64,000 bases of DNA from Solirubrobacterales bacterium (GTDB lineage: Bacteria > Actinomycetota > Thermoleophilia > Solirubrobacterales > 70-9), in the NCBI GenBank assembly GCA_046330295.1, contig JAXLTB010000001.1, positions 87,207 through 151,206 of the forward strand, given 5' to 3'. Positions 1,831-20,516 of the stretch are shown in pieces (position 1 is the first letter of the stretch; each line of letters opens with the position of its first letter). Below the pieces are notes generated by a model. That model saw only the letters and a list, made by a program, of their open reading frames with translations. It did no database searches and had not been told where the DNA came from. A program made the position numbers and the translations under genes.

Positions 1831-2949
1831 GTGCCAGTCGAAGTCAGCCCAGCCCGGAGCCGACGCCAAGTTGGTGAGTTCATCGAGTTGCCGTTCCGCC
1901 TGCATGCCGGAACGCCCTGGGTGCCACCGCTGCGCCTCGAGCGGCGGATCTTCCTCAATCGCCGCCTCAACGCCTATTTCAAGCACGGCGAGGCCGAGTA
2001 CTTCCTGGCTCGGCGAGACGGCGAGATCGTCGGCCGGATCAGTGCCCAGATCGACTTCGCCTACAACCGCTTTCACGGAAGCCGCACGGGGATGTTCGGC
2101 TTCCTCGAGTTCGAGGACGACCAAGAGGTGCTCGAGGCGCTGCTTGGCGCGGCGGAGGGGTGGCTGAAGGCGCGGGGCTGCGTCGAGGCGCTGGGGCCGA
2201 TGGACTTCTCTCTCAACGACGAGAGCGGGGTGCTGATCGAGGGCTTCGAGCTCGAACCGCTGATCCGCCAGCCCTGGCACCCGCCCTACTACCAGCAGCG
2301 CTGCGAGGCGGCCGGCCTGACCAAGGCGATGGACCTCTTCTCCTGGGACCTCTCGATAGACGACCGCGAGCAGATGCTGCCGATCCTCTTCGAACTGGCG
2401 GAGAAGGCGGAATCGGAGCATCGGGTCGCGGTGCGGAAGATGTCCCGTCGCGGCCTGCGCCGGGACCTGGACAGGTTCGCAGAGGTCTACAACTCCGCCT
2501 GGTCGACCAACTGGGGCTTCGTTCCCTACTCCAAGCAGGACCTCGACGCCTACGCCCTGGACCTGCAACTCGTCTTCACGCCGGAGTGGTTCATGGTCGC
2601 CGAACGCGACGGGGAGACGATCGCGATGGCGATCACCGTGATGGACATCAACCAGGTGCTGCGCAAGATGAAGGGGCGCCTGCTGCCACTCGGCTGGTGG
2701 CACTTCCTGCGCCGCAACCGGATCTGCGACCGCCTCCGGGTCGGCTTCCTCGGGGTGAAGCCCGAGTACCAGCACACCGGCGTCGCCGCGCTCCTCTACG
2801 TCGAACATTTCAACGCGGCGGCGGCGACCCCGCTGAAGAAGGGCGAGGCGGGCTGGATCCTCGAGAGCAACGAGGCGATGAACCGTGGGCTCGAGGCGAT
2901 GAACGGGCGCCTCGTCAAGCGCTACCGGGTCTACGAGCGCGCCCTCTAG
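1831..2949 (+). CDS. GNAT-like N-acetyltransferase family protein (function unknown)
   Basis: 372-aa ORF with coding-like composition. The C-terminal part (GVKPEYQHTGVAALLY ... ESNEAMNRGLE) resembles an acyl-CoA N-acyltransferase fold. Divergent from the reductase gene. Confidence 0.7.
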   Translation: MPVEVSPARSRRQVGEFIELPFRLHAGTPWVPPLRLERRIFLNRRLNAYFKHGEAEYFLARRDGEIVGRISAQIDFAYNRFHGSRTGMFGFLEFEDDQEVLEALLGAAEGWLKARGCVEALGPMDFSLNDESGVLIEGFELEPLIRQPWHPPYYQQRCEAAGLTKAMDLFSWDLSIDDREQMLPILFELAEKAESEHRVAVRKMSRRGLRRDLDRFAEVYNSAWSTNWGFVPYSKQDLDAYALDLQLVFTPEWFMVAERDGETIAMAITVMDINQVLRKMKGRLLPLGWWHFLRRNRICDRLRVGFLGVKPEYQHTGVAALLYVEHFNAAAATPLKKGEAGWILESNEAMNRGLEAMNGRLVKRYRVYERAL

Positions 2950-2957
2950 CGGCCCGG

Positions 2958-4196
2958 CTAGGGCGCCCGCAGCGCCACCACGCAGTTCTGCCCCCCGAAC
3001 CCGAAGGCGTTGGCGATCGCCGTCTTAACGACGGCCTCCCGGGCCTCGAGGGCGACGTGATCGAGATCGCACTCGGGGTCGGGCGACTCGAGGTTTATCG
3101 TCGGGGGCAGGGCCGAATCGCGCATCGCGAGCAGGCAGACCATCGCCGAGAGCGAGCCTGCGGCGGCGATCAGGTGCCCGACCATCGACTTCGGGGAGCT
3201 GACCGGGACGCGGTCGGTATCCGCGCCGAGGACGGAGCGGATCGCCTTCGTCTCGGAGATGTCGTTGGCGCGGGTGGCGGTGCCGTGGGCGCATATGTAG
3301 TCGAGCTCGGCCGGCTCGATCCCGGCCCGTTCCATCGCCGTGGCGATCGCCAGCGCCGCGAAGCGACCGCTCGGCTCGGGAGCGCTCATGTGGAAGGCGT
3401 CCGCGGTCAGCGCACCGCCCGCGATCCGCCCGTAGGGGACGGCGCCTCGCGCTTCGGCGTGAGCCGCCGACTCGACGACCATCAGCACGGCGCCCTCGCC
3501 GAAGACGAAGCCGTCGCGGTCGGAGTCGAAGGGTCGGGAGGCTCGCCCGGGCTCGTCGTTGCGCTCCGACAGCGGCCCCATGTTGGATAACCCGGCAAAG
3601 ACCGCGGCGTTGATGCCGGCGTCTGCCCCCCCGGCGATCACGACGTCGGCCTCACCGGCGACGATCAACCGCCGGGCCTCGAGCAGAGCGTAGGTTCCCG
3701 TCGCGCAGGCCAGGGCGCTGGCGGTGACCGGACCGTGGGCGCCGAGCTCGATCGCCACCTCGCAGGCTGCCATGTTGGGGATCGTCGAGGCGACGAAGAA
3801 GGGGCTGACCTGGTTCGGGCCCTCCGCGACGAGGGCGAGGACGTTGCGTTCGGTCTCGGGTGTACCCGCCACCGCGGTGCCGACCGCGACTCCGACCCGG
3901 CCGGAGCTCGCGGCCACGTCGAGACCAGCGTCCTGCACCGCCTCGCGGGCCGCGACGATGGCCATCTGCGAGAAGCGGGCGGTGCGGTGGGCGCGCTTGG
4001 GCCCCAGCTCGGCAACCGGGTCGAAACCGCGCACTTCGCCGGCGATGCGGGTCGAGAGCGGCAGGGGGTCGAACGCCGCGATCGGGCCGATGCCCGACTC
4101 GCCGGCGAGCAGCGACCGCCACGTGGTCGGCACGTCGAGTCCGACCGGGGTGATGGCACCAATCCCCGTCACGACCGGGTCCGGAGTGCCGGTCAC
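2958..4196 (-). CDS. fabF: Beta-ketoacyl-ACP synthase II (KAS II)
   Basis: 412 aa. Cys-His-His triad contexts ACATGTYAL, CAHGTATRANDISE and KSMVGHLIAAAG, with a C-terminal NAFGFGGQN. Confidence 0.9.
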   Translation of the reverse strand: MTGTPDPVVTGIGAITPVGLDVPTTWRSLLAGESGIGPIAAFDPLPLSTRIAGEVRGFDPVAELGPKRAHRTARFSQMAIVAAREAVQDAGLDVAASSGRVGVAVGTAVAGTPETERNVLALVAEGPNQVSPFFVASTIPNMAACEVAIELGAHGPVTASALACATGTYALLEARRLIVAGEADVVIAGGADAGINAAVFAGLSNMGPLSERNDEPGRASRPFDSDRDGFVFGEGAVLMVVESAAHAEARGAVPYGRIAGGALTADAFHMSAPEPSGRFAALAIATAMERAGIEPAELDYICAHGTATRANDISETKAIRSVLGADTDRVPVSSPKSMVGHLIAAAGSLSAMVCLLAMRDSALPPTINLESPDPECDLDHVALEAREAVVKTAIANAFGFGGQNCVVALRAP

Positions 4197-7417: not shown

Positions 7418-8598
7418 CCCAGGCGCCGGCATCGACCCCCGAAGCCCTCGACGAGGTCGAGTTCGCGGCCCTCAAGCAGGAGATCGCGGCCTACGTCGCC
7501 GAGCAGGGAGAGGCATGGACCGCCCGGATCGAGGAGAGCGGAACCGTTCCCGCCGAGCTGCGCGCGGAGCTTCGCGATCGCGGCTACCTCTCGCTCGCCG
7601 GCCCGCGCGAGTACGGCGGGCGCGGCATCCCCTTCGCCCGCTACCTCGAGCTGCTCGAGCTCTTCTCGATGTCCCACGCCTCCCTGCGGATGATCATTCA
7701 CGTCGCCAACGGCGTCTGGCGGGCGGTCGACCAGTACGCGACCGAGGAGCAGCGCCGGCAGTTCGTGCTCCCCGCGGTCACCGGCGAGCTGACAATTGCC
7801 TTCACCCTCACCGAGCCCACCGCGGGCACCGGCGCCGACCTGCGCTGCGCGGTCGAGCGCGAGGGCGACACCTACTACCTCTCGGGCGAGAAGCACCTGA
7901 TCACCTTCGGCGTCAGCTGCGACCGCTGGCTGCTCTTCGCCCGGCTGGCCGGTACCAGCGGCGGCGAGGGCACCGTTGCGCTGCTCGTCGACCGCGAGGT
8001 GCCGAACGTAAGCGTCCGCGAGATGGGACCGTCGCTCGGGGTGCGCGGGACCGATCACGCCCACCTCGTCTTCGACCGGGCGCCGGTCCCCGTCGCCGAC
8101 CGCCTCGGCGAGGAGGGCAACGGCCTCGCGGTGGCCTTCGGCGGCTTCCTCACCCCGAGCCGTATCGCGGTGGCGATGACCTGCGTCGGCCTCGCCCGCC
8201 GGGCGCAGGACCTTGCCGTCGCGCATGCGCTGGAGCGCGTCACCTTCGGCAAGCCGCTGGCCGCCCGGCAGGCCATCTCCTTCGCGCTGGCCGAGAACGC
8301 GGCCGACATCGAAGCCGCGCGGCAGCTGGCCCTGCACGCGGCGGAGGAATGGGAAGGTGGCTCGGCGCAGGCCGGGACGCTCTCCTCGATGGCGAAGCTG
8401 ACCGCGGTCGACATGTTGACCCGGGTCACCGACAAGGCCCTGCAGGCCCATGGCGGGATCGGGTTCTGGGCATCCCAGCCGATCGAGCGGGTGTACAGGG
8501 ATGCCCGCGCCCAGCGCTTCGAGGAGGGCACCAACGAGATCCAGAAGACGATCATCGCCCGCGACGTGCTGACGCCGCCCGCGGGACCGGCCGCATGA
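7414..8598 (+). CDS. Acyl-CoA dehydrogenase (AnsL/PlmL-like position)
   Basis: 394 aa. GTGA start/stop overlap with the upstream gene. Motifs FTLTEPTAGTGADL, GEKHLITFG, QAHGGIGF and RFEEGTNEIQK. Confidence 0.9.
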   Translation: MTQAPASTPEALDEVEFAALKQEIAAYVAEQGEAWTARIEESGTVPAELRAELRDRGYLSLAGPREYGGRGIPFARYLELLELFSMSHASLRMIIHVANGVWRAVDQYATEEQRRQFVLPAVTGELTIAFTLTEPTAGTGADLRCAVEREGDTYYLSGEKHLITFGVSCDRWLLFARLAGTSGGEGTVALLVDREVPNVSVREMGPSLGVRGTDHAHLVFDRAPVPVADRLGEEGNGLAVAFGGFLTPSRIAVAMTCVGLARRAQDLAVAHALERVTFGKPLAARQAISFALAENAADIEAARQLALHAAEEWEGGSAQAGTLSSMAKLTAVDMLTRVTDKALQAHGGIGFWASQPIERVYRDARAQRFEEGTNEIQKTIIARDVLTPPAGPAA

Positions 8599-9455
8599 GC
8601 GAAGGATTCGCCACCGACCGCGTCGCTCTGATCACCGGCAGCTCGCGCGGGATCGGGCGCTCCCTGGCTCTGTCCCTGGCCGCGCAGGGCGCCTCGATAG
8701 TCGTCAACTACAAGCGCAACCGGGAGCTCGCGGACTCGGTGGTGCGATCGGTCGAGGAGGCCGGTGGACAGAGCATCGCCGTGCAGGCCGATATGGAGAA
8801 GCCGGACGACATCGATCGGCTGTTCGAGTCCGCGGCGGAGAGGTTCGACCGGCTCGACTACTTCGTCAGCAACGCCGCGGCCAGCGCCTTCAAGTCGATC
8901 GCCGACCTGAAGCTGCACCACCTCGACCGCTCCTACGCGATGAACGTCCGCGCCTTCGTGCTCGGTGCCCAGCGCGCGGTCGAGCTGATGCCCGACGGCG
9001 GGCGGATCGTCGCGCTATCCAGCTACGGCTCGATCCGCGCCTATCCGACCTATGCGAATCTCGGCGCCGCCAAGGCCGCAGTCGAGGCCTGGGTCCGCTA
9101 CATGGCGATCGAGTTCGCGCCGCTGGGGATCAACGTCAACGCCGTCAACGGCGGGATCATCGACTCCGATTCCTCGGCCTACTTCTACGACGTCGAGGGC
9201 ATGCCCTCGCTGGAGACCGTCCTGCCGAAGGTGCCGAAGGCGCGGATGGGGACGGTCCAGGAGGTGGCCGATGTCGTCGAGTTCCTGCTCGAACCCCGCT
9301 CGGAGTACATCACCGGCCAGTCACTGGTCGTCGACGGCGGGCTCAGCATCGTCGCGCCGCCGTTCTTCGACGACGCCACCGGCCCGCTGCGGCTTCCCGC
9401 TCGAAACGGCGGCGAGGAGGCCGGTGCGGGCGCGGGCGCCGCGTCCGATGGCTGA
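8595..9455 (+). CDS. Short-chain dehydrogenase/reductase, candidate 1-cyclohexenylcarbonyl-CoA reductase (ChcA-like position)
   Basis: ATGA overlap with the ACAD stop. ALITGSSRGIGRSLA (TGxxxGIG), NAAAS, SSYGS...YxxxK (YANLGAAKAA). 286 aa. The longer track ORF from 7326 is an out-of-frame read-through artefact. Confidence 0.85.
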   Translation: MSEGFATDRVALITGSSRGIGRSLALSLAAQGASIVVNYKRNRELADSVVRSVEEAGGQSIAVQADMEKPDDIDRLFESAAERFDRLDYFVSNAAASAFKSIADLKLHHLDRSYAMNVRAFVLGAQRAVELMPDGGRIVALSSYGSIRAYPTYANLGAAKAAVEAWVRYMAIEFAPLGINVNAVNGGIIDSDSSAYFYDVEGMPSLETVLPKVPKARMGTVQEVADVVEFLLEPRSEYITGQSLVVDGGLSIVAPPFFDDATGPLRLPARNGGEEAGAGAGAASDG

Positions 9456-11553
9456 CCCGAGCGGCGAGCTCTCGGCCGCCTTCACGCCGACGGCGGTCGG
9501 ACGCCTGTGGCTCCCCCACCGGATCGTGATGGGAGCGATGCACCTCGGCATCGAGGCCGCCCCGGATGCCGGCGAGGCACTGGCGGCCTTCTACCGTGAG
9601 CGCGCGCTCGGCGGAGCCGGCCTGATAGTCACCGGCGGCTGGGCCGTCTCCCGGGTCGGTGCCGGGGGGCGCAGCTACGGCTTCGTCAACGAGGAAGCCG
9701 GGGCGCGGGCGCTCGAGCGCGTCGTGGCTGGGCTTCAGGGAACCGGTTCGGCGATCGCCCTGCAGCTCTTCCACGCCGGTCGCTACGCCTTCGAGGATGC
9801 CTTCGGGCTGGTTCCGGTGGCTCCCTCGGCGCTCGCGAGCCGGGTCTCGAGGACGATGCCCCGACCGCTCGAGGAGGATGAGATCTGGGAGACGATCGAG
9901 AGCTTCGCGCGAGCGGCTCGCCGCGCCGTCGAGCTCGGCTTCGACGCCGTCGAGGTGATGGGATCGGAGGGCTACCTGGTCGACCAGTTCCTCTCCCCGC
10001 TGACCAACAGGCGCGAAGATGCCTGGGGCGGCGATCACGAGCGCCGGATGCGCTTCGGCCTCGAGCTGGCGGCGGCGGTCCGCGATGCGGTCGGTGCCGA
10101 GTTCCCCCTCATCTTCCGGATGACCGGCGCCGATCTGATGCCGGGCTCCCGCTCGAGCGGCGAAGTGCTCGACTTCGCGCGGGCGCTCGCCGGCGCCGGC
10201 GTCGATGCGATCAACGTCGGGATCGGCTGGCACGAATCCGCGGTGCCGACGGTCCAGGGCCCGGTGCCGCCCGGCGTATGGTCGCCGTGGGCGGTGGCGC
10301 TGAAGCGGGCTGTCGGCACGGAGGTCGAGGTGATCGCGGGAAACCGCGTCAATCGCGTCACCGACGGCGCCACGCTGCTCGCCACGGGGGAGATCGACCT
10401 CGTCTCGATGTCGCGTCCCTTCCTCGCCGACCCCGAGCTGCTAGCCAGGGCGCGGGCCGAGCGCCCGGTCAACGTCTGCATCTCCTGCAACCAGGCCTGC
10501 ATCGACCGCTCTCTGACCGACGGACAGGTCTCCTGCCTGGTCAATCCGCGGTCGGGGTTCGAGCGGTCCTTCCCCCTGCCCGCGGAGACGAGTGCCGGCG
10601 GGCCCTCGGGGCGCTTCGCGGTCATCGGCGCTGGCCCCGCCGGGCTCGAGGCGGCGCGGACGCTGGCGCGCCTCGGCCAGCGGGTGGAGCTGTTCGAGGC
10701 CGAGGAGGAGCTGGGCGGGCAGTTCCGCTTCGCCCGCTTGGTTCCGGGCAAGGAGGACTTCGGGGCGACGATCTCCTACTTCGACCGGGAGCTGCGGCGG
10801 CTGGGCGTGCTCATCCACCTTGGCCGAGCCGTCCGCGAAACCGACGCGGATCTGCTCGGCGGCTTCGACGGCGTCGTCCTCGCAACCGGGGTCCTACCGC
10901 GTCGGATCGACCTGCCCGGCGCCGAGCTACCGCTGGTGAGCGACTATCCGAGCGCCTTCGACGGCGCGGTCAGCGCGGCGCGACGTGTCGCGATCATCGG
11001 CGCCGGGGGGATCGGGGTCGACCTCGCCCATTGGCTCACCCACAGGGAGACCGGGGAGCCCGCCGCGGAGCGCTTCCTCCGGGAGCAGGGCTGGTGCCGC
11101 CGGGGGCGGGGGCTGGTCGGGGATCCCGGCACCGACCTCGCCGCCGCCACCGCGCCACCGGCGGTGACGATGATGCGACGGGGCGGTCGGGCCGGAGCCG
11201 GCATCGGCCGCTCGACTCGCTGGGTTTGGCTGGCCGCCCTGCGCCGCGCCGAGGTCGCGATCCGCATCGGCCTCTCCTACCGGGCGATCACCCCTGATGG
11301 GGTGGAAATCGTGGTCGACGGAGCCGAGCCCGAGCTGGTCCCCGCAGATGCGGTCGTGGTCGCGGCCGGCCAGGAGCGCAACGACGCGCTGCGGCCAGTG
11401 CTGGAACGCGTCGGCGTGCCGCACCGGGTCGTAGGCGGCGCCGAGAGCCCGACCGAGCTGAATGCCGTGCGCGCCTTCGGGGACGGCCTGCGCGCCGCCT
11501 ACGAGCTGGCGGGCGGTCGGGCGGGCGCCGGTTGGGCTTCCGCCGCCCGCTGA
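9448..11553 (+). CDS. 2,4-dienoyl-CoA reductase-like FMN / Fe-S / FAD-NAD(P) oxidoreductase (AnsM/PlmM-like position)
   Basis: ATG 9448 overlaps the SDR stop by 8 nt. OYE-type TIM-barrel motifs (LQLFHAGRY, GFDAVEVMGSEGYL), Cys cluster CISCNQACIDR...SCLVNP, then dinucleotide folds AVIGAGPAGLEAA and VAIIGAGGIGVD. Confidence 0.9.
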   Translation: MADPSGELSAAFTPTAVGRLWLPHRIVMGAMHLGIEAAPDAGEALAAFYRERALGGAGLIVTGGWAVSRVGAGGRSYGFVNEEAGARALERVVAGLQGTGSAIALQLFHAGRYAFEDAFGLVPVAPSALASRVSRTMPRPLEEDEIWETIESFARAARRAVELGFDAVEVMGSEGYLVDQFLSPLTNRREDAWGGDHERRMRFGLELAAAVRDAVGAEFPLIFRMTGADLMPGSRSSGEVLDFARALAGAGVDAINVGIGWHESAVPTVQGPVPPGVWSPWAVALKRAVGTEVEVIAGNRVNRVTDGATLLATGEIDLVSMSRPFLADPELLARARAERPVNVCISCNQACIDRSLTDGQVSCLVNPRSGFERSFPLPAETSAGGPSGRFAVIGAGPAGLEAARTLARLGQRVELFEAEEELGGQFRFARLVPGKEDFGATISYFDRELRRLGVLIHLGRAVRETDADLLGGFDGVVLATGVLPRRIDLPGAELPLVSDYPSAFDGAVSAARRVAIIGAGGIGVDLAHWLTHRETGEPAAERFLREQGWCRRGRGLVGDPGTDLAAATAPPAVTMMRRGGRAGAGIGRSTRWVWLAALRRAEVAIRIGLSYRAITPDGVEIVVDGAEPELVPADAVVVAAGQERNDALRPVLERVGVPHRVVGGAESPTELNAVRAFGDGLRAAYELAGGRAGAGWASAAR

Positions 11554-12450: not shown

Positions 12451-13945
12451 GTGCACGATCATCCAAGATCGCCTGTTCACCGCGCTGCAGTAGGGGGTCT
12501 CTTGGCGCGCCTGCCCGAAAGCCTTGACGTCCTCCGCAGGCGGGAGTTCCGGCTACTGTTCAGCGGGCAGGCAGTGTCCGTGCTGGGCGACCGCATGGCC
12601 CTCCTAGCGCTCGCTTTCGCGGTGCTGGAGATCGGCGGTTCGGTCTCAGACGTCGGGCTCGTGCTGGCCGCGGGGATGTTCCCCTTGGTGACGACCGTGC
12701 TGGCGGGCGGCGTGGTCGCCGACCGGGTCTCACGCCGTGCCGTGATGGTGGTTGCAGACCTGGTGCGGGTCGCGAGCCAGGGCACGATGGCAGCTCTGCT
12801 CATAGCGGGAGTGGCGGAGGTGTGGATGCTCGCGCTGCTGGCCGGCGTGGCTGGCGCGGCCACCGGCTTCTTCAGCCCCGCGTCGACCGGTCTGCTGCCC
12901 GCGGTCGTCCTCGCGGAGCAGCTGCAGCCGGCGAACGCGCTGCGTGCGAGCGCCGCCTCGACGGGCGAGATCCTCGGCCCGGTTGTGGGCGGGGCGCTGG
13001 TCGCCGCCGCCGGGGCAGGCTGGGCGATCGCGATCGACGCCGTGACGTTCGCGGTGAGCGCCGCCTGCCTGGCGATGCTGCGGGTTCCGACGTGTCGCGG
13101 CGCAACGGAGCTCCTTCGTCGCCGACCTGCGTGAGGGCTGGGTCGCCTTTCGGGCGCGCAGGTGGGCTTGGACCTTCGTCCTCTACTTCGCGATCGGGAA
13201 CCTGCTCTGGGGCGCGTGGGGCACGCTCGGGCCCATCGTCGCCAAACGCGACCTCGGCGGCGCGGCGGCGTGGGGCACCGTTCTTGCGGCGGTGGGCGTC
13301 GGAGCACTGGCCGGCAGTCTGCTCGCGGCACGCGTCAGACCGCGCAGGCCGCTGCTGTTCGCCGCCTCACCGACGGACTCTTCGCGTTGCCGTTGGCCTT
13401 CCTGGCGGCGGCCCCACCAGTGCCGCTGATCGCCTGCGGTGCGCTGCTGGCCGGCGCGGGGATGGCGCTCGCGATCTCCGTCTGGGAGTCGACGCTCCAG
13501 CGCCACGTCCCCGGCGAGTCGCTGTCCAGGGTCAGCTCCTTATGACTGGTTCGGCTCGCTCGCCTTCTACCCCTTGGGACTCGCAGTCTGGGGTCCGGTC
13601 GCGGCGGTCATCGGGATCAGCGTCTCGCTGTGGCTGGCTTTCGGGCTCGCCGTCGCCCTGACCCTCGCGCTGCTCAGTGTCCTCGACATCCGCCATCTAC
13701 CTGCTGCCGCGCTGCCGGCTCGGCACCGCCGGCGAGTCCAGCCGAAAGTCCGACGCCGCAGCGCCGCCGGTGTCAGCCTCAGTTCAACATCGTGGCCAAG
13801 GCCCGTCGGAGGACCAGGTGGGCAACCTTCACCCCTCGAGCATCCAACGCAGGTCAGCTTCTTGAGACGGGCGCGCTCGGCCGGGGGCTTTGCCGTCCGC
13901 AGCAGCTTCTTGGCTCAATCGAGGTGTTCCCCCGCAGCCAGGTAA
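12451..13945 (+). pseudogene. MFS transporter (EntS/MFS_3-like) disrupted by at least three frameshifts
   Basis: N-terminal half in frame 1 (REFRLLFSGQAVSVLGDRMALLALAF...). Continuation SFVADLREGWVAFRARRWAWTFVLYFAIGNLLWGAWGTLGPIV is in frame 2. LTDGLFALPLAFLAAAPPVPLIACGALLAGAGMALAISVWESTLQRHVP is back in frame 1. YDWFGSLAFYPLGLAVWGPVAAVIG is in frame 2. The 3' end is uncertain. Confidence 0.6.
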
Positions 13946-14140: not shown

Positions 14141-14563
14141 TCAGATGTCAGCGGGCAGGAGTTCGAACACCCCGCCCTGCAGTGGCGCCACGGCTCGGAA
14201 ATGGCGCTCGTCAAAGCTGAAGAGGCGCCGGGTTTCGTAGCGATCCGCAAGGACCGCGATCGAGCAATCGGCGAGACCGAGGCCGAGATCGGAGTAGCGG
14301 GCGTTGAGCTCGGCGACCACCGGGTACTCGCCCGCTTCCAGACAGGCGACGTCGTAACGCCACGCGGCGAGGTCGCTGAGGAAGGCACGTCGGGCCGCAT
14401 GGCCGAAGCGGACACCAAGCAGATAGTCGACCTCGGCCGCAACCGGTGCCGGGAGGACCAACGGTCCCTCCTCCTCTTCGCGGATCCTCAGCAGCGCCTC
14501 GAGCTGCGGCTCCTTGGCGTCCGCCAGCGCGACCAGCGGCGCCGCGTCGAGGATGAGCGTCAC
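14141..14563 (-). CDS. vapC: PIN-domain ribonuclease toxin VapC
   Basis: 140 aa. Starts MTLILDAAPLVAL (conserved Asp) and has later acidic residues (AELNARYSDLGLGLADCS, FSFDERHF). 4-nt overlap with the upstream antitoxin gene. Confidence 0.85.
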   Translation of the reverse strand: MTLILDAAPLVALADAKEPQLEALLRIREEEEGPLVLPAPVAAEVDYLLGVRFGHAARRAFLSDLAAWRYDVACLEAGEYPVVAELNARYSDLGLGLADCSIAVLADRYETRRLFSFDERHFRAVAPLQGGVFELLPADI

Positions 14564-14835
14564 TCGCCGAAGCCGCGCATCAGCTCGTCCTCGGGGATCT
14601 CCGAGATCGGCCGAGAATCGGCATCGATGCGCTCGAAGTTACCGGCGAGGGCGAAGTTCCGATCCCGCTTGGGCGCAGGCCGGTAGCAGGAGATCGCCTC
14701 GCGGACGATCTCCGCCTGGGGGCGGCCCTCCGCGCGGGCGAGACGAGCGAGGCGGTTCGCCAGCTCGTCATCGAGGTAGATACTGGTCTTGCGCACGAGA
14801 AAGCAGTATAGGGCACTACGTAGGGCATTGCTCAT
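14560..14835 (-). CDS. vapB: Ribbon-helix-helix (CopG-type) antitoxin VapB
   Basis: KTSIYLDDELANRLARLARAEGRPQAEIVREAI is a typical RHH. ATG 14835 is preceded by AGGA. The track start at 14853 and GTG 14796 are alternatives. Confidence 0.8.
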   Translation of the reverse strand: MSNALRSALYCFLVRKTSIYLDDELANRLARLARAEGRPQAEIVREAISCYRPAPKRDRNFALAGNFERIDADSRPISEIPEDELMRGFGE

Positions 14836-14865
14836 TGGTCCTGAGACAGGCACCGAGTGTCGGCA

Positions 14866-15245
14866 CTCGGGATGCTCACGCCAACCGAATACGAGGATCT
14901 ACACAACCTGCGTTGGCGCGACGTCAAACCTCGGCGGCCAGACACTGCGGGTCGCCTCCTCGAAGACCGACACCGGCATCCGCGACGTCGGCCTCTCCCC
15001 GACGCTGCGAGAGGCCCTCTCTGGGTACCGCACACGGACCCGCCGCGGCGGGGCTTACGACCTCGTCTTCCCGACCGCAGAGGGCAAGCGCGACAACCCG
15101 TCGAACGTCCGAAACCGGTTCCCAGCGAGCGCGGTCGAGCGGGCGAACGTCGCACTGCGCGAAGCCGGGGCCGAGCCGATCGTCGGCGTCACGCCCCACT
15201 CGCTGCGCCGCACTTCCATCAGCCTGCTGCTCGCGACCGGGGGCG
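14866..15245 (+). pseudogene. Tyrosine recombinase (phage-integrase family) remnant, truncated at both ends and frameshifted
   Basis: LHNLRWRDV is in frame 1. NLGGQTLRVASSKTDTGIRDVGLSPTLREAL...GVTPHSLRRTSISLLLATGG is in frame 2, with the shift at the AAA run near 14922. There is no N-terminal domain and no C-terminal Tyr box. Confidence 0.6.
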
Positions 15246-15350
15246 GCGGCACCGCCACCGTGCTGGTGGCTTCACCCGTGGCGGCGCCGGTCGGGCGATT
15301 TTCGTTGATGTTGCGCCGGCCGGCGGGCCAAGCTAGGGTCGCTGGGGCGC

Positions 15351-16055
15351 ATGAGCGTAATGCTTCTGCTCCTCAGGGTTATCCTCGGGGCGGTTTTTGC
15401 GATCGCCGGCGTCGCCAAGCTCCGGGACGGGGCCGGGACGCGGCGGACGGTCCAGGAGTTTGGGGTGCCCGAGAAGCTCGCTCCGATGGTCGGGTTCTGT
15501 CTACCGCTCGCCGAGCTCGCGGCCGCGACCACACTCGTTTTCAACCCGACCGCTGGTGTAGGGGCCATCGCATCCTTCTGCCTGCTCGCTCTCTTCGCCG
15601 CCGTGATTGCCGCAAGCATCTCCCGGGGACAGCGGCCCGACTGCAACTGCTTCGGCCAGCTTCACTCGGCGCCGGTCGGTTGGCGGACAGCCGCCCGCAA
15701 CCTCGTGCTCGCGGCCCTGGCGGTCCTCATCCTCGCGGGCAACGGGCACGCCCTCGTCGGGGCGACCGCCGCCGGCGCGCTCGCTCTGGCCGCCGTCGGG
15801 ATCCTGCTGCTGGATCGGCGGCAAGCGGAGGACGGACACGAAGGCGCTGGAGCTGTGGCAAGAGCCCGCTCGCGATCGGCTCGCGTGCACCGCCATTTGA
15901 GCTGCGATCGCGCGACGGTCTCAACGTCAGCCTCACATCGCTGGTTCGCCGCGGCCGCCCGGTCCTCTTGGTCTTCAGCGATCCCCATTGCGGGCCGTGC
16001 ATGGCGCTGGCGCCCGAGCTCGCCCGCTGGCAGCGACGCCATTCCGACGAGCTGA
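15351..16055 (+). CDS. MauE/DoxX-family redox-associated membrane protein (ORF as it stands; the last ~65 codons look like out-of-frame read-through)
   Basis: Five hydrophobic segments and the family CxCFG motif (RPDCNCFGQLH). After about 15830 the frame turns Arg/Ser-rich, while a thioredoxin domain appears in another frame. Confidence 0.65.
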   Translation: MSVMLLLLRVILGAVFAIAGVAKLRDGAGTRRTVQEFGVPEKLAPMVGFCLPLAELAAATTLVFNPTAGVGAIASFCLLALFAAVIAASISRGQRPDCNCFGQLHSAPVGWRTAARNLVLAALAVLILAGNGHALVGATAAGALALAAVGILLLDRRQAEDGHEGAGAVARARSRSARVHRHLSCDRATVSTSASHRWFAAAARSSWSSAIPIAGRAWRWRPSSPAGSDAIPTS

Positions 16056-16255
16056 CCATCGCAGTCGTCGAGCGCGCGTCCAATGAAATCGGCGAGGGGG
16101 CGGACGCCCACGGCCGCCGCGACTTGCTGGTACAGCGCGACAGCGACGTCGCCGATGTCTACGTGGCTCGTGGGACTCCGAGCGCGGTCCTCGTCGATAC
16201 TCACGGCAGGGTTGCGAGCGCTCCGGTTGGCGGCCGTGTCGGGATCGAAGCGCTC
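15866..16255 (+). other. Thioredoxin-fold (TlpA/ResA/MauD-like) domain with no start codon of its own, in frame 2
   Basis: PLAIGSRAPPFELRSRDGLNVSLTSLVRRGRPVLLVFSDPHCGPCMALAPELARW...GTPSAVLVDTHGRV. CGPC active site. No ATG/GTG/TTG in this frame for more than 100 nt upstream, so at least one frameshift is implied relative to the MauE frame. Confidence 0.6.
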
Positions 16256-17188
16256 GTGGCCGAGCACGTCGCCGGCTTCGAATCGTCTGAGCGCGCCTCG
16301 GAATCAACTCCGCCGACGCACTTGCGCCGGCGGGAGATCCTCACCCGCTTCGGCGTCGCCTCGGGGGCCCTGGCGGCCCTCGGATTCCCCGCCTGGGCAA
16401 CCGCCCAGGCGGGGCCGCTCAAGATCAGGCGCTGCCACCATGATCGGGATTGCCCCGGGTCGCTTCAGTGCATCGACGGAGATTGCAAGTGCCCGGCCCT
16501 CTACCTAGACCAGTGCGGCAACGACTGCGTCGACCTCAACGGCGACCCGGCGAACTGCCGCGAGTGCGACCACGCGTGCGGTGCGGGAGAGAGTTGCGTC
16601 GGAGGCAAGTGCACGGAGGGCGATGCCACCACCTGCAACCCACCGTGTCCCGTCGGGCAGGCGTGCTGTCTCGAGTCCGGCAGCCCGAAGTGCGTCGACC
16701 TCAGCGTGGGTGCCGGCGAGCACTGCGGTGAGTGTGGCCACGACTGCACGCCGACGGAGGTCTGCTGCGACGGTCGCTGCAAGAACCTGTTCCAGAATCC
16801 AAACCGCTGCACGAGTAAGGAGGAGGGCTGCTTCGGCGTCAACAAGAAGAAGTGCAAGAGAGGTCAGGTCTGCTTCAACGGGCGCTGCCGCGACACGTGT
16901 CCGGACCGCTACACGCGGTGCGGCGACTTCTGCCTCGATTCAACAAGGAAGGAGCAGTGCTGCGACGCCAGGGTCTACGGCCAGTGGGATCTGCACAACT
17001 GCGGCGCGTGCGGCCACGACTGCAAGAAGCTCTCGGGTTTCATCCGGGCCGCTTGCTGCCCTGGAGTCGGCTGCGTCGACCTCGCGGTCAATCCCGGCAA
17101 CTGCGGCGGCTGCGGGAACCCGTGTCCCTCAAACTGCCAGTGCGTTCCCGGCCCGGGTGGCAAGGGTGTCTGCACGAACTGTGTCTAG
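16256..17188 (+). CDS. Secreted cysteine-rich repeat protein with a twin-arginine-type signal peptide (46 Cys)
   Basis: HLRRREILTRFGVASGALAALGFPAWATAQA, then about 258 aa with 46 Cys by my count. Repeated C-V-D-L-x(3-5)-NCGxCGxxC modules. Candidate starts are GTG 16256 and TTG 16322. There is no stop separating it from the thioredoxin domain upstream. Confidence 0.7.
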   Translation: MAEHVAGFESSERASESTPPTHLRRREILTRFGVASGALAALGFPAWATAQAGPLKIRRCHHDRDCPGSLQCIDGDCKCPALYLDQCGNDCVDLNGDPANCRECDHACGAGESCVGGKCTEGDATTCNPPCPVGQACCLESGSPKCVDLSVGAGEHCGECGHDCTPTEVCCDGRCKNLFQNPNRCTSKEEGCFGVNKKKCKRGQVCFNGRCRDTCPDRYTRCGDFCLDSTRKEQCCDARVYGQWDLHNCGACGHDCKKLSGFIRAACCPGVGCVDLAVNPGNCGGCGNPCPSNCQCVPGPGGKGVCTNCV

Positions 17189-17198
17189 GCGATCGGGC

Positions 17199-17552
17199 TT
17201 GAGATCGGTGCGACCCGGGCCGTCTTTGGCGGCGTTGACCGGCAAGGCCCCGCAGCTGGCCGAGGTCGACGCCAGATTCGGGGAGCCAGGGCTCTTCGGC
17301 CGGAACCCTGACGGGCTGCTTCAGCGGGCCTACGCGAAACTCTGCCGCTACTCCCACAGTCGTCCGGGCCATACGAACGGAGACATCCGGCAGAGCAACG
17401 GCCCGGTTTTCGTGGGAGGCGGGTTCACCCGCTTCCGGGAAGACCTTTGCGACACGATCGCCCTCTGCTACGTGCGGTACAAGATCGGCTGGTCCGAGCT
17501 CGTCCTCCCCGCGGATGCGCATCCTCTTTTCGAGTTCGCGGACGAGCGCTGA
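17199..17552 (+). CDS. Hypothetical protein or gene fragment
   Basis: Coding-like tail ...LLQRAYAKLCRYSHSRPGHTNGDIRQSNGPVFVGGGFTRFREDLCDTIALCYVRYKIGWSELVLPADAHPLFEFADER. Starts at TTG 17199 or GTG 17208. No family recognised. Confidence 0.3.
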   Translation: MRSVRPGPSLAALTGKAPQLAEVDARFGEPGLFGRNPDGLLQRAYAKLCRYSHSRPGHTNGDIRQSNGPVFVGGGFTRFREDLCDTIALCYVRYKIGWSELVLPADAHPLFEFADER

Positions 17553-17943
17553 GACGACGGGCTCGGCTCGAGGCTGCTCGAGTCTTCTTTCCGGACGCCG
17601 TCGAGCACAGTCCGGGCCTCTGATCGAACTCATGGGCATAGCGGCGGCGCCGCCCGCGACGCGGTCCGGTGAACTCGAATCGCCCCGTCGGATTCCAGCC
17701 ACTTCCGGCGAAGAGTGGCCGTCTCGGCGACCTATCCCCGTATATCGCCGCGCATCGGGATTCAGAGGCCAAACACGCAATCGCACGTATCCAGCGGTGG
17801 CTTGCAGACAATCGCGGAGCGTTCCGACAGATGCAACGACCCCGCGGTTGCTACCCCCGACTGCTACTCCCGCCCGAATCGGCCCCTACGATGATTGACG
17901 ACAACCAGCAGAAAGCGGCTGACTTGCAGTCGATTCGCGAAAA

Positions 17944-18017
17944 AGCGGCTGATGGGATTCGAACCCACGACCTTCTGCATGGCAAGCAGACGCTCTAGCC
18001 AGCTGAGCTACAGCCGC
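17944..18017 (-). tRNA. tRNA-Gly (anticodon GCC)
   Basis: Folded by hand from the reverse complement GCGGCTG-TA-GCTC-AGCTGGCTA-GAGC-G-TCTGC-TTGCCAT-GCAGA-AGGTC-GTGGG-TTCGAAT-CCCAT-CAGCCGC-T. Clean cloverleaf. CCA is not encoded. Confidence 0.9.
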
Positions 18018-19115: not shown

Positions 19116-20516
19116 ATGCTCTTCCGCCAGATAATCCACGAGGACCTCGGCTGCGCCTCCTACCTGGTCGCCGACCGCGAAAGCGGCGTCGGCGTCGTCG
19201 TCGACCCCCAGTGGGACATCGACCCCTACCGGCGGCTGGCGCGCCTGCACGGGGTGCGGATCGGCCACATCCTCGAGACCCACAACCACGCCGACCACGT
19301 CTCCGGGCACGGGCGGCTGGCGCGGACGACGGGTGCCACGATCCACATCCATCGGCTGGCGGAGGCCGAGTACGCGCACGAGCCCTTCGAGGACGGCTGG
19401 GTGCTGGCGTTGGGCGACATGACGATCGAGGCGATCCACACGCCCGGGCACCGTCCCGAGCACACCGCCTTCCTGCTGCGCGACGCGGGGCGCGACGGCG
19501 CCCCGTGGGCGGTCCTGGGCGGGGACTCGCTGTTCATCGGCGACGTCGCCCGGCCCGACCTCGCGGTGGAGCCCCGCGAGGGCGCCGCGGACATGTTCCG
19601 CTCCCTGCACGAGCGGTTGCTGGTGCTCGACGACGAGGTCGAGATCTGGCCCGGTCACCTCGGCGGCTCGCTCTGCGGCGGCGCGGGGATCGATCTCAAG
19701 ACTTCCTCGACGATCGGCTTCGAGCGCCGCCACAACCGTGCGCTCGGCATTGCCGAGGAGGCGGATTTCGTCGAGGACGCGGTCTCCTCGCTCGGCGATA
19801 GGCCGCCGAACGTCGAGCAGATCGTCGCCCTCAACCGGGGCCCCCTGGTCGAGGACTTCGGTACCCCGTCGCCGCTGACGCCCCATGAGGTCGAGGAGGC
19901 CGTCGTCGCCGGGGCCCTGGTCATCGACGGCCGCACCAACGAGGAGTTCGACGAGGCCCACGTCGCCGGCGCGCTCAGCACATCCTCCTACGACACCGGC
20001 TTCGCCACCAAGGTCTCCCGGGTCGCCCCCGACGGCGCCGAGATCATCGTCGTCGCCGCCTCCGACGGAGACGAGCGGCACGCCGCCGAGCTGCTGGCCG
20101 CGGTGGGCATGCGGGTGCGCGGGTTCCTCGAGGGCGGGATGACCGCCTGGCGCACGGAGGAGCGGCCGGTCCACAAGATCGAGCTGATCGACCCCGAGGA
20201 GCTGGCGCGGCGAGCCGAGGCGCCGGCGCCGCCGCTGATCCTCGACGTCCGCAACAACGCCGAGTACGCGTCCGAGCACATCCCCGGCTCCCTCCACATC
20301 CCCTACGGGGACCTGGCGGATCGGCTCGACGAGCTTCCCCGCGACCGCCCGATCGCGACGATCTGCCGCGGCGGCAAGCGCAGTGGTCTGGCCGCCTCGA
20401 TCCTGCAGCGCGAGGGCTTCGCCGACGTCGTCCACGTCGGCCAGGGGGTCCTGACCTGGCGCGACGCCGGCCATCCGGTGGAGAGCGGCGGCCGCGCTCC
20501 CAGCCCGGCGCTGTAG
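19116..20516 (+). CDS. MBL-fold persulfide dioxygenase fused to two rhodanese domains (CstB-like)
   Basis: 466 aa. Metallo-beta-lactamase motif ETHNHADHVSG plus HTPGH. Two C-terminal rhodanese modules, the second with active-site loop ICRGGKRS. Confidence 0.85.
   Translation: MLFRQIIHEDLGCASYLVADRESGVGVVVDPQWDIDPYRRLARLHGVRIGHILETHNHADHVSGHGRLARTTGATIHIHRLAEAEYAHEPFEDGWVLALGDMTIEAIHTPGHRPEHTAFLLRDAGRDGAPWAVLGGDSLFIGDVARPDLAVEPREGAADMFRSLHERLLVLDDEVEIWPGHLGGSLCGGAGIDLKTSSTIGFERRHNRALGIAEEADFVEDAVSSLGDRPPNVEQIVALNRGPLVEDFGTPSPLTPHEVEEAVVAGALVIDGRTNEEFDEAHVAGALSTSSYDTGFATKVSRVAPDGAEIIVVAASDGDERHAAELLAAVGMRVRGFLEGGMTAWRTEERPVHKIELIDPEELARRAEAPAPPLILDVRNNAEYASEHIPGSLHIPYGDLADRLDELPRDRPIATICRGGKRSGLAASILQREGFADVVHVGQGVLTWRDAGHPVESGGRAPSPAL

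Follow-up and report, generated by a model that had tools for sequence, protein, structure and literature searches.

A once-frameshifted gene of a Solirubrobacterales bacterium joining a MauE-thioredoxin module, an internal twin-arginine-type signal and a cysteine-rich domain

LAYOUT OF THE LOCUS

We have analyzed a stretch of 64,000 nucleotides from a Solirubrobacterales bacterium (GenBank assembly GCA_046330295.1, contig JAXLTB010000001.1, positions 87,207 to 151,206 of the forward strand), called the window below, and have mainly focused on its positions 15351-17188, where a MauE-type membrane domain, a thioredoxin-fold domain, a segment resembling a twin-arginine (RR) signal and a cysteine-rich domain follow one another. 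The locus is a once-frameshifted copy of a single gene of about 612 codons, which is conserved in soil Thermoleophilia/Solirubrobacterales. The order in the native protein is MauE membrane domain, CGPC thioredoxin, internal twin-arginine-type signal and Stig1-like cysteine-rich domain. The four elements had been pointed out from the sequence alone (the original prediction), and all of them were found at the coordinates given there. The features of the locus, with the evidence used for each, are as follows.

15351-15866, + strand: MauE domain in frame 0, with five transmembrane (TM) helices and then the start of the linker between TM5 and the thioredoxin domain, DRRQAEDGHEGAGAVARA
15642-15650, + strand: CXC motif of the MauE domain, Cys-Asn-Cys, followed by Phe-Gly (CNCFG, 15642-15656), in the TM3-TM4 loop (translation)
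15840-15866, no strand: frameshift site, frame 0 to frame 2 (third-position GC plot and DNA alignment)
15866-16318, + strand: TlpA/ResA/MauD-like thioredoxin-fold domain and short C-terminal linker, frame 2 (Pfam, Foldseek)
15989-16000, + strand: CGPC active-site motif of the thioredoxin domain (HCGPC, 15986-16000; translation)
16319-16411, + strand: internal twin-arginine-type signal-like segment, HLRRREILTRFGVASGALAALGFPAWATAQA (translation, family comparison)
16412-17188, + strand: Stig1/MXAN_6577-like cysteine-rich domain, 258 aa with 46 Cys, and stop codon (Pfam, NCBIfam)

The five-helix MauE protein with CNCFG, predicted from 15351 in frame 0, is borne out over 15351 to about 15813 by a match to Pfam PF07291, by five hydrophobic helices and by the presence of the motif. 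Profile matches and translation likewise confirm the thioredoxin fold with HCGPC, predicted from 15866 in frame 2 without a start of its own, and neither ATG, GTG nor TTG is found upstream of the thioredoxin domain in that frame. The RR segment expected from about 16320 occupies 16319-16411 with the sequence listed above, and the expected stretch of about 258 aa with 46 cysteines has exactly 46 Cys in 258 aa at 16412-17185. In the frame plot, the third-position GC changes phase between about 15800 and 15860. Two coding sequences are annotated here by NCBI, a 231-aa MauE/DoxX protein (P0269) and “hypothetical protein U0R26_00495” (P0001), the latter encoded on a 236.5-kb contig of a Solirubrobacterales metagenome-assembled genome.

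A SINGLE GENE CONSERVED IN SOIL BACTERIA

When frames 0 (15351-15866) and 2 (15866-17188) are joined by re-reading one base, e.g., by restoring CCC at 15865-15867 to CCCC, a protein of 612 aa is obtained, and this reconstruction is colinear with its homologues straight across the junction. Dozens of single proteins of about 600-650 aa carrying the MauE, thioredoxin and Stig1 Pfam domains were found in a search with the frame-2 product, and all motifs are present in at least 37 single-chain homologues of 575-683 aa. The closest homologue is P0002 with 69% identity, and its gene (L095) shows 72.6% nucleotide identity. Among 185,579 species, each represented by a single genome, nine genomes have the full architecture, each as one unbroken open reading frame (ORF), and these are only of Thermoleophilia, of Solirubrobacterales or unclassified actinomycete soil metagenome-assembled genomes; the two-domain MauE-thioredoxin form gave more than 580 matches over many phyla in the same set. 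The recurrence of this four-part order in dozens of independent sequences puts the observation far beyond chance.

Three readings had been left open in the original prediction. A single multi-pass protein is the native architecture, as seen in 37 homologues and in the nine unbroken species-representative loci. Separate genes are not the design of the family, though a stand-alone homologue with a signal for twin-arginine translocation (Tat) exists (P0132, see below). Decay fits the copy in the window, which has one frameshift and adjoining pseudogenes.

The genes next to the three-domain gene were compared in five genomic contexts and none was common to all, so the three-domain gene is self-contained; a conserved operon partner was thereby ruled out, and the extracytoplasmic function (ECF) sigma factors that adjoin it in two of the five are probably there by chance. 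A word-indexed search with the cysteine-rich domain alone returned four proteins, and an exhaustive search was needed. P0125, considered as a stand-alone homologue, was rejected as an N-terminally cut three-domain protein. Tandem three-domain paralogues, P0029 and P0082, are located on one Thermoleophilia contig (L003:10001-13869), where P0082 starts at the last base of P0029; both are in the RL subclade described below.

FRAMESHIFT AND STATE OF THIS COPY

In the alignment with the L095 DNA, every gap has a length divisible by three apart from a 2-nt gap at about 15851, and the frameshift sits in the stretch that links TM5 to the thioredoxin domain. Programmed -1 frameshifting was rejected as unsupported, since the MauE ORF contains no slippery X_XXY_YYZ heptamer in frame 0 and all relatives are read in a single frame. 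Assembly-wide indel errors were rejected as the cause in view of the long unbroken frames in the rest of the window. A contig of the Logan assembly (L001, run SRR26348421) is 100% identical over window 14184-17972 (3789 bp) and reproduces the split, though it probably uses the same reads as the window assembly. Upstream, a gene for a major facilitator superfamily (MFS) transporter (12451-13945, + strand) has MFS_1/MFS_3 matches on its first 227 aa and then three frame changes, and is probably a pseudogene, and a tyrosine recombinase remnant (14948-15262, + strand) matches Phage_integrase at profile positions 62-142 only (E 0.034). Since the second assembly reproduces the split, the neighborhood decays and the rest of the window has long intact frames, the frameshift is probably real. 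It cuts MauE off from the rest, so that the copy in the window has probably lost its activity in full or in part and is likely to be a recent pseudogene.

Two other accounts of the lesion were weighed. The frameshift could have arisen as an error of the assembly or consensus, or could represent a minority variant, the organism encoding the intact 612-aa protein. Such an account draws on the single-base nature of the lesion, in a C run (CCC 15865-15867) of a variable linker, on the lack of stops or other damage in the remainder of the gene and on the source being a metagenome-assembled genome. We consider it improbable, because the Logan assembly is identical at the site (with the reservation on reads given above), the three frame changes in the MFS gene 2 kb upstream and the integrase fragment indicate real decay, and the long unbroken frames elsewhere speak against an error-prone assembly.

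Alternatively, the locus might yield separate products, namely a stand-alone MauE protein that would run over 15351-16055 and end in an out-of-frame tail, and a cysteine-rich protein secreted by Tat and starting at GTG 16256 or TTG 16322, the thioredoxin part being untranslated. Both halves are open without further stops, the frameshift is the sole lesion, a start at TTG 16322 would yield MRRREILTRF..., a proper N-terminal RR signal, and the stand-alone homologue P0132 has such a layout. However, no Shine-Dalgarno-like sequence precedes 16001, 16256 or 16322, all other family members are fused, the thioredoxin domain, invariant in the family, would be lost, and the flanking DNA contains decayed genes. 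A promoter and terminator scan found no sigma-70-like promoter and terminator-like sites at chance level only, a result that says little for this high-GC host. Taken together, separate products seem a poor bet for this locus, although the downstream half may still be expressed to some degree from GTG 16256 or TTG 16322, neither of which has a ribosome-binding site.

The recombinase remnant happens to share its open frame with the thioredoxin/cysteine-rich part. A tRNA-Gly(GCC) gene is located downstream (17944-18017, - strand), and the remnant on one side and the tRNA on the other suggest an old integration site. Genomic-island boundaries at the tRNA-Gly were rejected, as the 3' half of the tRNA has no second copy and convincing direct repeats are lacking.

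MauE AND THIOREDOXIN DOMAINS

Residues 1-129 of the frame-0 product match Pfam MauE (PF07291) with 99.9 bits against a cut-off of 27 (E 1.7e-28). The five TM helices are at about residues 5-22, 46-64, 72-90, 118-130 and 140-154, with hydropathy peaks of 1.7-2.7 in the window protein and typically 2.0-2.9 in the family. K at the end of TM1, E in TM2 and C, C, F and G of the loop motif are invariant columns in alignments A1 and A3. A sequence search of PDB with this domain gave no matches. According to a preprint of March 2026 (bioRxiv 10.64898/2026.03.05.709764), MauE proteins from Caldithrix and Desulfatibacillum can stand in for DsbB in E. coli, an intact CXC of the TM3-TM4 loop is essential in both of them, the conserved TM1 Lys and TM2 Glu line the predicted quinone site, and a thioredoxin-superfamily fusion is found in 8.2% of InterPro MauE entries. 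On account of these findings, the MauE-thioredoxin pair belongs to a known kind of disulfide-generating unit, and the MauE domain is, by analogy with the tested proteins, a predicted DsbB-like quinone-linked disulfide generator with a CXC active site.

The thioredoxin domain scores above the cut-offs of Pfam AhpC-TSA, Thioredoxin_2 and Thioredoxin. The MauD equivalog TIGR02661 gives 27.9 bits, far below its cut-off of 188.6, and the ResA and deiodinase-related NCBIfam matches are also below their cut-offs. The domain is MauD-like in fold and position and is not a MauD orthologue. CGPC is found in 34 of the 38 family members, the remainder having CAPC or CVPC, and the cis-Pro-type T-P pair is invariant (alignment A1).

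AlphaFold2 was run on P0002 with the family alignment. The predicted local distance difference test (pLDDT) is about 90 for the MauE helices, 93-97 for the thioredoxin domain and 83-94 for the cysteine-rich domain, and falls below 50 in the TM5-thioredoxin linker (residues 155-166) and in the RR/hydrophobic region (residues 311-354, with a helix at 322-340). Because the predicted template-modeling score (pTM) is 0.35, the packing of the domains in this model is undefined. In Foldseek, the thioredoxin domain of the P0002 model is nearest to ResA (2f9s; target-normalised TM-score 0.78, root-mean-square deviation 3.0, E 1.4e-8), with CcmG, Etrx, SdbA and FetE as other structural neighbors, and the fold search of the full-length model gave only thioredoxin-fold matches.

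CYSTEINE-RICH DOMAIN

Pfam Stig1 (PF04885) matches the cysteine-rich domain in two stretches (E 7e-12), its 46 bits exceeding the cut-off of 24.1. The match to NCBIfam NF041328 (MXAN_6577-like) has 51.4 bits (E 1e-13), below the cut-off of 100. The domain shares the NF041328 repeats and is not a member by the NCBI threshold. It contains four CVDL...NCGxCGxxC modules, with DNA repeats D1-D3. Modeled alone by AlphaFold2, the domain of the window gives stacked beta-hairpins with a pLDDT of 89.1. It has no sequence matches in PDB and nothing below E 0.1 in the fold search, where the weak structural neighbors of the model are extracellular disulfide modules (furin-like repeats, EGF, TNFR, granulin). 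Downstream of the signal-like segment, each of the 37 sequences counted has an even number of Cys (36-60), in many cases one that is not divisible by four, and the even counts fit complete disulfide pairing.

A metal- or cluster-binding domain has to be considered here, for which the MauE/thioredoxin part would be reductive and would keep the thiols reduced for metal loading before Tat export. Cofactor-loaded proteins are commonly exported by Tat (PMC5449189), CGPC is the classical reducing thioredoxin motif, and an earlier study, as far as it is cited in bioRxiv 10.64898/2026.03.05.709764, suggested a reductase role of MauE. No cofactor motif was recognized in the domain by Pfam, NCBIfam and fold searches. 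Against the proposal stand Cys counts that are always even and often not multiples of four, the predicted stacked beta-hairpins, whose sole and weak structural neighbors are extracellular disulfide modules, and the fact that Stig1 is a secreted plant cysteine-rich family. MauE, in addition, acts as an oxidase in the assays of the preprint, and we regard the reductive role as highly unlikely.

INTERNAL TWIN-ARGININE-TYPE SEGMENT

The segment of the window consists of an n-region HLRRREILTR, a weakly hydrophobic h-region FGVASGALAALGF and a c-region PAWATAQA with A-x-A, followed by the basic KIRR; LRRREILTR, a 24-residue uncharged stretch and AQA correspond to the Tat motif (S/T-R-R-x-F-L-K-like), h-region and small-x-small site of a Tat signal. 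The position of the segment is internal rather than N-terminal, with residue 324 of 612 as its first. In the family, the consensus reads RRE[LF]LxR, RR being present in 29 of the 38 members, and the h-region is Ala/Gly/Ser-rich, uncharged and 12-27 residues long, often followed by Pro, a small-x-small site and basic residues. The hydropathy peak of the segment is about 1.3-1.9 versus 2.0-2.9 for TM1-5 (over 12 residues, 1.56 versus 2.9 for the strongest MauE helix), and the family mean in the 15 residues after it is 4.2 Lys and Arg (K/R). The Tat motif before the last hydrophobic segment, the low hydrophobicity and the positive charges after it are thus all present, and according to Tooke et al. 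2017 (PMC5449189), it is these three features that govern the dual Sec-Tat class of membrane proteins.

In stand-alone homologues, the segment is found at the N-terminus as a signal. One of them, P0132, is colinear with 42% identity and has its own intergenic region and an unrelated upstream gene, and P0122 is a second example. In the fused family, the FDxLTK helix of the unfused clients (see below) is lost and the RR, h- and c-regions are kept. AlphaFold2 leaves the segment unpacked from the membrane bundle (pLDDT below 50 in P0002).

MEMBRANE ORIENTATION

The mean K/R numbers in the family are 0 for the N-terminus, 4.0 for loop 1, 0.9 for loop 2, 3.9 for loop 3, 0 for loop 4 and 3.2 for the region after TM5. 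The same bias is found in 44 two-domain proteins, four canonical MauE proteins and 120 stand-alone MauE proteins, with none reversed; in the stand-alone proteins (P0268-P0387, including 34 of four helices), the means are 3.6 and 3.8 for loops 1 and 3 and 0.04 and 0.12 for the N-terminus and loop 2. In MauD anchors, the helix is preceded by no K/R and followed by LLRQxGxLxER. By the positive-inside rule, this bias places the CXC loop and the thioredoxin domain in the cytoplasm, and the internal signal can work only with such a cytoplasmic thioredoxin arrangement. Related thioredoxin domains are fused to a PqqD domain, a RiPP recognition element (RRE; RiPP, a peptide made by the ribosome and modified after translation), without an intervening helix, which also favors the cytoplasmic side; RREs act in the cytoplasm.

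Because of the charge bias, the retained n/h/c signal, the even Cys counts and the PqqD fusions, we favor, as somewhat better than an even chance, a model in which the MauE and thioredoxin domains face the cytoplasm and oxidize the attached cysteine-rich domain, which Tat then exports. The N-terminus of MauE would be outside the cell, with the five helices inserted through Sec and with the CXC loop and the thioredoxin domain at the cytoplasmic face, where the two domains would form a private disulfide relay for the covalently attached cysteine-rich domain. Electrons would pass from the client cysteines to CGPC, then to CXC and finally to quinone, and the cysteine-rich domain would be oxidatively folded in the cytoplasm. 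The internal RR signal would hand the folded domain to Tat, and signal peptidase would probably release it at the A-x-A site.

The opposite topology, which we judge unlikely but not negligible, is an extracytoplasmic VKOR-thioredoxin-like enzyme tethered to its substrate. Here the N-terminus of MauE would be inside and CXC outside, as reported for the two tested homologues, TM5 would carry the thioredoxin domain outside, the RR segment would be the non-spanning signal relic of a formerly separate downstream gene, and the cysteine-rich domain would pass Sec unfolded behind TM5 and be oxidized outside by thioredoxin/MauE. In agreement with such a passage, the h-region is weakly hydrophobic and only 12-16 residues long in several members, so that Sec could pass it, and the low AlphaFold2 confidence for the segment is linker-like. 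This topology requires about eight K/R in translocated loops and about one in cytoplasmic loops, in more than 200 sequences without exception. It also leaves unexplained why the n/h/c architecture and the following basic residues have been kept at 35-40% overall identity while the FDxLTK helix was lost, why unfused clients and the MauA/AauA small subunits have Tat-type signals, and why PqqD fusions exist.

Several observations nevertheless weigh against the cytoplasmic model, some of them directly in favor of the extracytoplasmic one. The thioredoxin domain is structurally nearest to ResA, CcmG and Etrx, and these, like SdbA and FetE, are extracytoplasmic. RL or RM replaces RR in nine of the 38 members, which form one subclade; their h-region is more hydrophobic (1.89 versus 1.56, p = 0.003), a difference that is effectively one observation because the RL members are a single clade. 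The Tat model TIGR01409 gives no score for the segment of the window (the segment of P0033 has 15.9 against a cut-off of 16.7, and unfused clients have 13.8-16.7). Of the K/R residues in the loops, at least three are invariant, and their role may lie in function rather than in topology. In P0059, known from a single 2.7-kb contig, a closely related thioredoxin domain stands behind a lipobox-like N-terminus and a PD40-like segment and, provided that the gene call is correct, would be located outside the cell, although this call may be chimeric. A motif search found no tat genes in the window, and the copy in the window is frameshifted. Finally, two four-helix MauE proteins replace DsbB, TOPCONS puts their CXC in the periplasm, and MauE-thioredoxin fusions are likened to VKOR-thioredoxin (bioRxiv 10.64898/2026.03.05.709764).

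UNFUSED MauE-THIOREDOXIN LOCI AND THEIR CLIENTS

Up to 4 kb per side was examined for 71 two-domain MauE-thioredoxin loci. In 22 of them, the flanks contain an ORF that is 150 aa or longer and has 30 or more Cys. In 25 of the 71, there are one or more ORFs with the N-terminal motif F-D-[DE]-L-T-[KR]-x-L-x4-S-R-R-x-x-L followed by 6-122 Cys, most of them on the same strand and directly adjoining the MauE-thioredoxin gene, and none was found in the control DNA (the window and 239 kb of other fetched loci), which is of a modest size (about 300 kb), the motif pattern having been set after examples were seen. The loci with such client candidates, and examples of these, are listed below.

Loci: L026, L028, L029, L031, L036-L038, L040, L042, L045, L049, L050, L053-L055, L061, L063
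Loci, continued: L067, L071, L072, L075, L077, L079, L082, L090
Examples: L028:147-2195 and 2454-3917; L077:6070-8067 and 8391-9953

The mature parts of the clients are heterogeneous (Stig1/MXAN_6577-like, Dicty_CTDC, Hint-containing, or of no family), and the hosts of these loci belong to six phyla, i.e., Chloroflexota, Verrucomicrobiota, Acidobacteriota, Actinomycetota, Gemmatimonadota and Rokubacteria. The conserved helix before the twin-arginine motif of the clients (full form ending SRRxxLK) may be a docking element for the MauE-thioredoxin module. The check proposed originally, co-occurrence of MauE/thioredoxin genes with cysteine-rich proteins, thus turned out positive, and the possibility that the two are never adjacent elsewhere is contradicted by the 25 unfused loci. 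The association is general, and the three-domain protein is its fused form. The idea that a dedicated disulfide-handling module is strung to its client is supported by this co-occurrence and by the one polypeptide found in at least 37 homologues and in the nine species-representative genomes.

A client candidate of 681 aa at L079:1649-3691 has 111 Cys, an FDELTK...SRR signal and a C-terminal Hint/intein-like module (Hint E 2.5e-8; intein C-terminal region E 1.2e-4).

A likeness to the methylamine dehydrogenase logic of MauE, MauD and MauA had also been proposed. In the four amine-dehydrogenase clusters fetched, the gene order is mauE, mauD and small subunit, the small subunits having RR signals, and the domain order of the fused protein is the gene order mauE-mauD-mauA of these clusters. 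We tentatively propose, as an idea that falls a little short of even odds, that MauE-thioredoxin modules are natural, cytoplasm-facing, quinone-linked disulfide generators which pre-fold cysteine-rich proteins for Tat.

OTHER FEATURES

A toxin-antitoxin pair occupies 14141-14853 of the window (- strand), with a PIN-domain VapC-like gene (14141-14563) and a ribbon-helix-helix antitoxin gene (14560-14853) that overlap by 4 bases. Just downstream of the cysteine-rich gene, an ORF of 114 aa (17208-17552, + strand) has no Pfam match, and further downstream, an ORF of 466 aa (19116-20516, + strand) encodes what resembles, by eye, a metallo-beta-lactamase-fold and rhodanese fusion. Among the related thioredoxin proteins, P0053 and P0075 (L093:38-1432) have two thioredoxin-fold domains and then a PqqD-like (RRE) domain with no helix between. 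P0075 starts at the contig end with an apparent MauE TM4-TM5, and an NTP_transf_5 gene is located two genes downstream.

IMPLICATIONS

In textbook bacterial disulfide formation, disulfides are made outside the cytoplasm, after Sec export. If the cytoplasmic model holds, a disulfide-generating enzyme is physically linked to a domain with a need for about 23 disulfides, the link being a signal by which folded proteins are exported, and this single gene would be a compact test system for natural cytoplasmic-face oxidation followed by folded Tat export. If the general proposal on MauE-thioredoxin modules is true, the fused Thermoleophilia protein would be its extreme form, and FDxLTK...SRRxxLK signals on neighboring clients, in at least six phyla, would be the mark of the unfused form. 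Methylamine dehydrogenase, with its MauE/MauD/MauA, would provide a further instance, which would explain the maturation of its Tat-exported six-disulfide small subunit and bears on the question why a MauE/MauD of their own is encoded beside that subunit in amine dehydrogenase clusters. Modules of this kind would be a natural counterpart of the engineered combination of CyDisCo and Tat, and the MauE family would work on either face of the membrane. The analysis also bears on the 2026 report of MauE as a general periplasmic DsbB substitute, since the charge bias of more than 200 sequences predicts the opposite orientation. In practice, a natural machine could aid the production of disulfide-rich proteins, and the FDxLTK...RR signal provides a handle on a large, unstudied class of secreted cysteine-rich proteins of soil bacteria.

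COMPARISON WITH KNOWN SYSTEMS

The architecture had been thought to have no described counterpart. This stands for the enzyme-signal-client fusion: our literature searches turned up neither a described MauE-thioredoxin-Stig1 fusion nor a protein of this kind with an internal Tat signal, nor the FDxLTK...RR class of clients. It does not stand for the MauE-thioredoxin fusion, which is noted in the 2026 preprint.

With the mau/aau clusters, the protein shares a CXC MauE and a CxxC thioredoxin fold (MauD in the clusters), followed by a disulfide-rich product with a twin-arginine signal (the small subunit), as well as the K/R pattern of MauE and the helix and then basic residues before the thioredoxin fold. 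Unlike the clusters, it is one polypeptide, its client is an unrelated Stig1-like domain of 258 aa with 46 Cys rather than MauA, its thioredoxin motif is CGPC in place of CPxC, and no other mau genes are nearby. With the MauE and VKOR-thioredoxin proteins of the preprint (bioRxiv 10.64898/2026.03.05.709764), it has in common the CXC-FG, the TM1 Lys, the TM2 Glu and the thioredoxin-superfamily fusion, whereas the third part, i.e., the internal RR signal and the cysteine-rich domain, is unmentioned there, and the charge bias found here predicts an orientation opposite to that reported. Stig1 (PF04885)/NF041328 proteins have the same CxDL...NCGxCGxxC modules, and stand-alone bacterial members have Tat-type or lipoprotein signals, but here the domain is fused behind a membrane enzyme.

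Dual Sec-Tat proteins (the actinobacterial Rieske protein Sco2149, Sco3746 and polyferredoxins; PMC5449189, PMC3471235) resemble it in the actinobacterial host and in having Sec-type helices, then a Tat motif before the last, weakly hydrophobic segment and positive charges after it. They differ in that the present protein would have five Sec helices and one Tat segment with a folded enzyme of 150 aa in the cytoplasmic loop, and in that its passenger has no known cofactor; MauE/thioredoxin is unmentioned in PMC5449189. The h-region, often too short for a stable helix and followed by A-x-A, suggests release rather than anchoring. Under the model of cytoplasmic oxidation and Tat export, the closest functional likeness would be to CyDisCo combined with Tat (PMC9995818, PMC6350376), in which a dedicated cytoplasmic oxidase acts and the folded protein is exported by Tat. 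CyDisCo, however, is man-made and uses soluble Erv1p and protein disulfide isomerase (PDI), whereas the system described here would be natural and membrane- and quinone-linked, with its client covalently tied to it.

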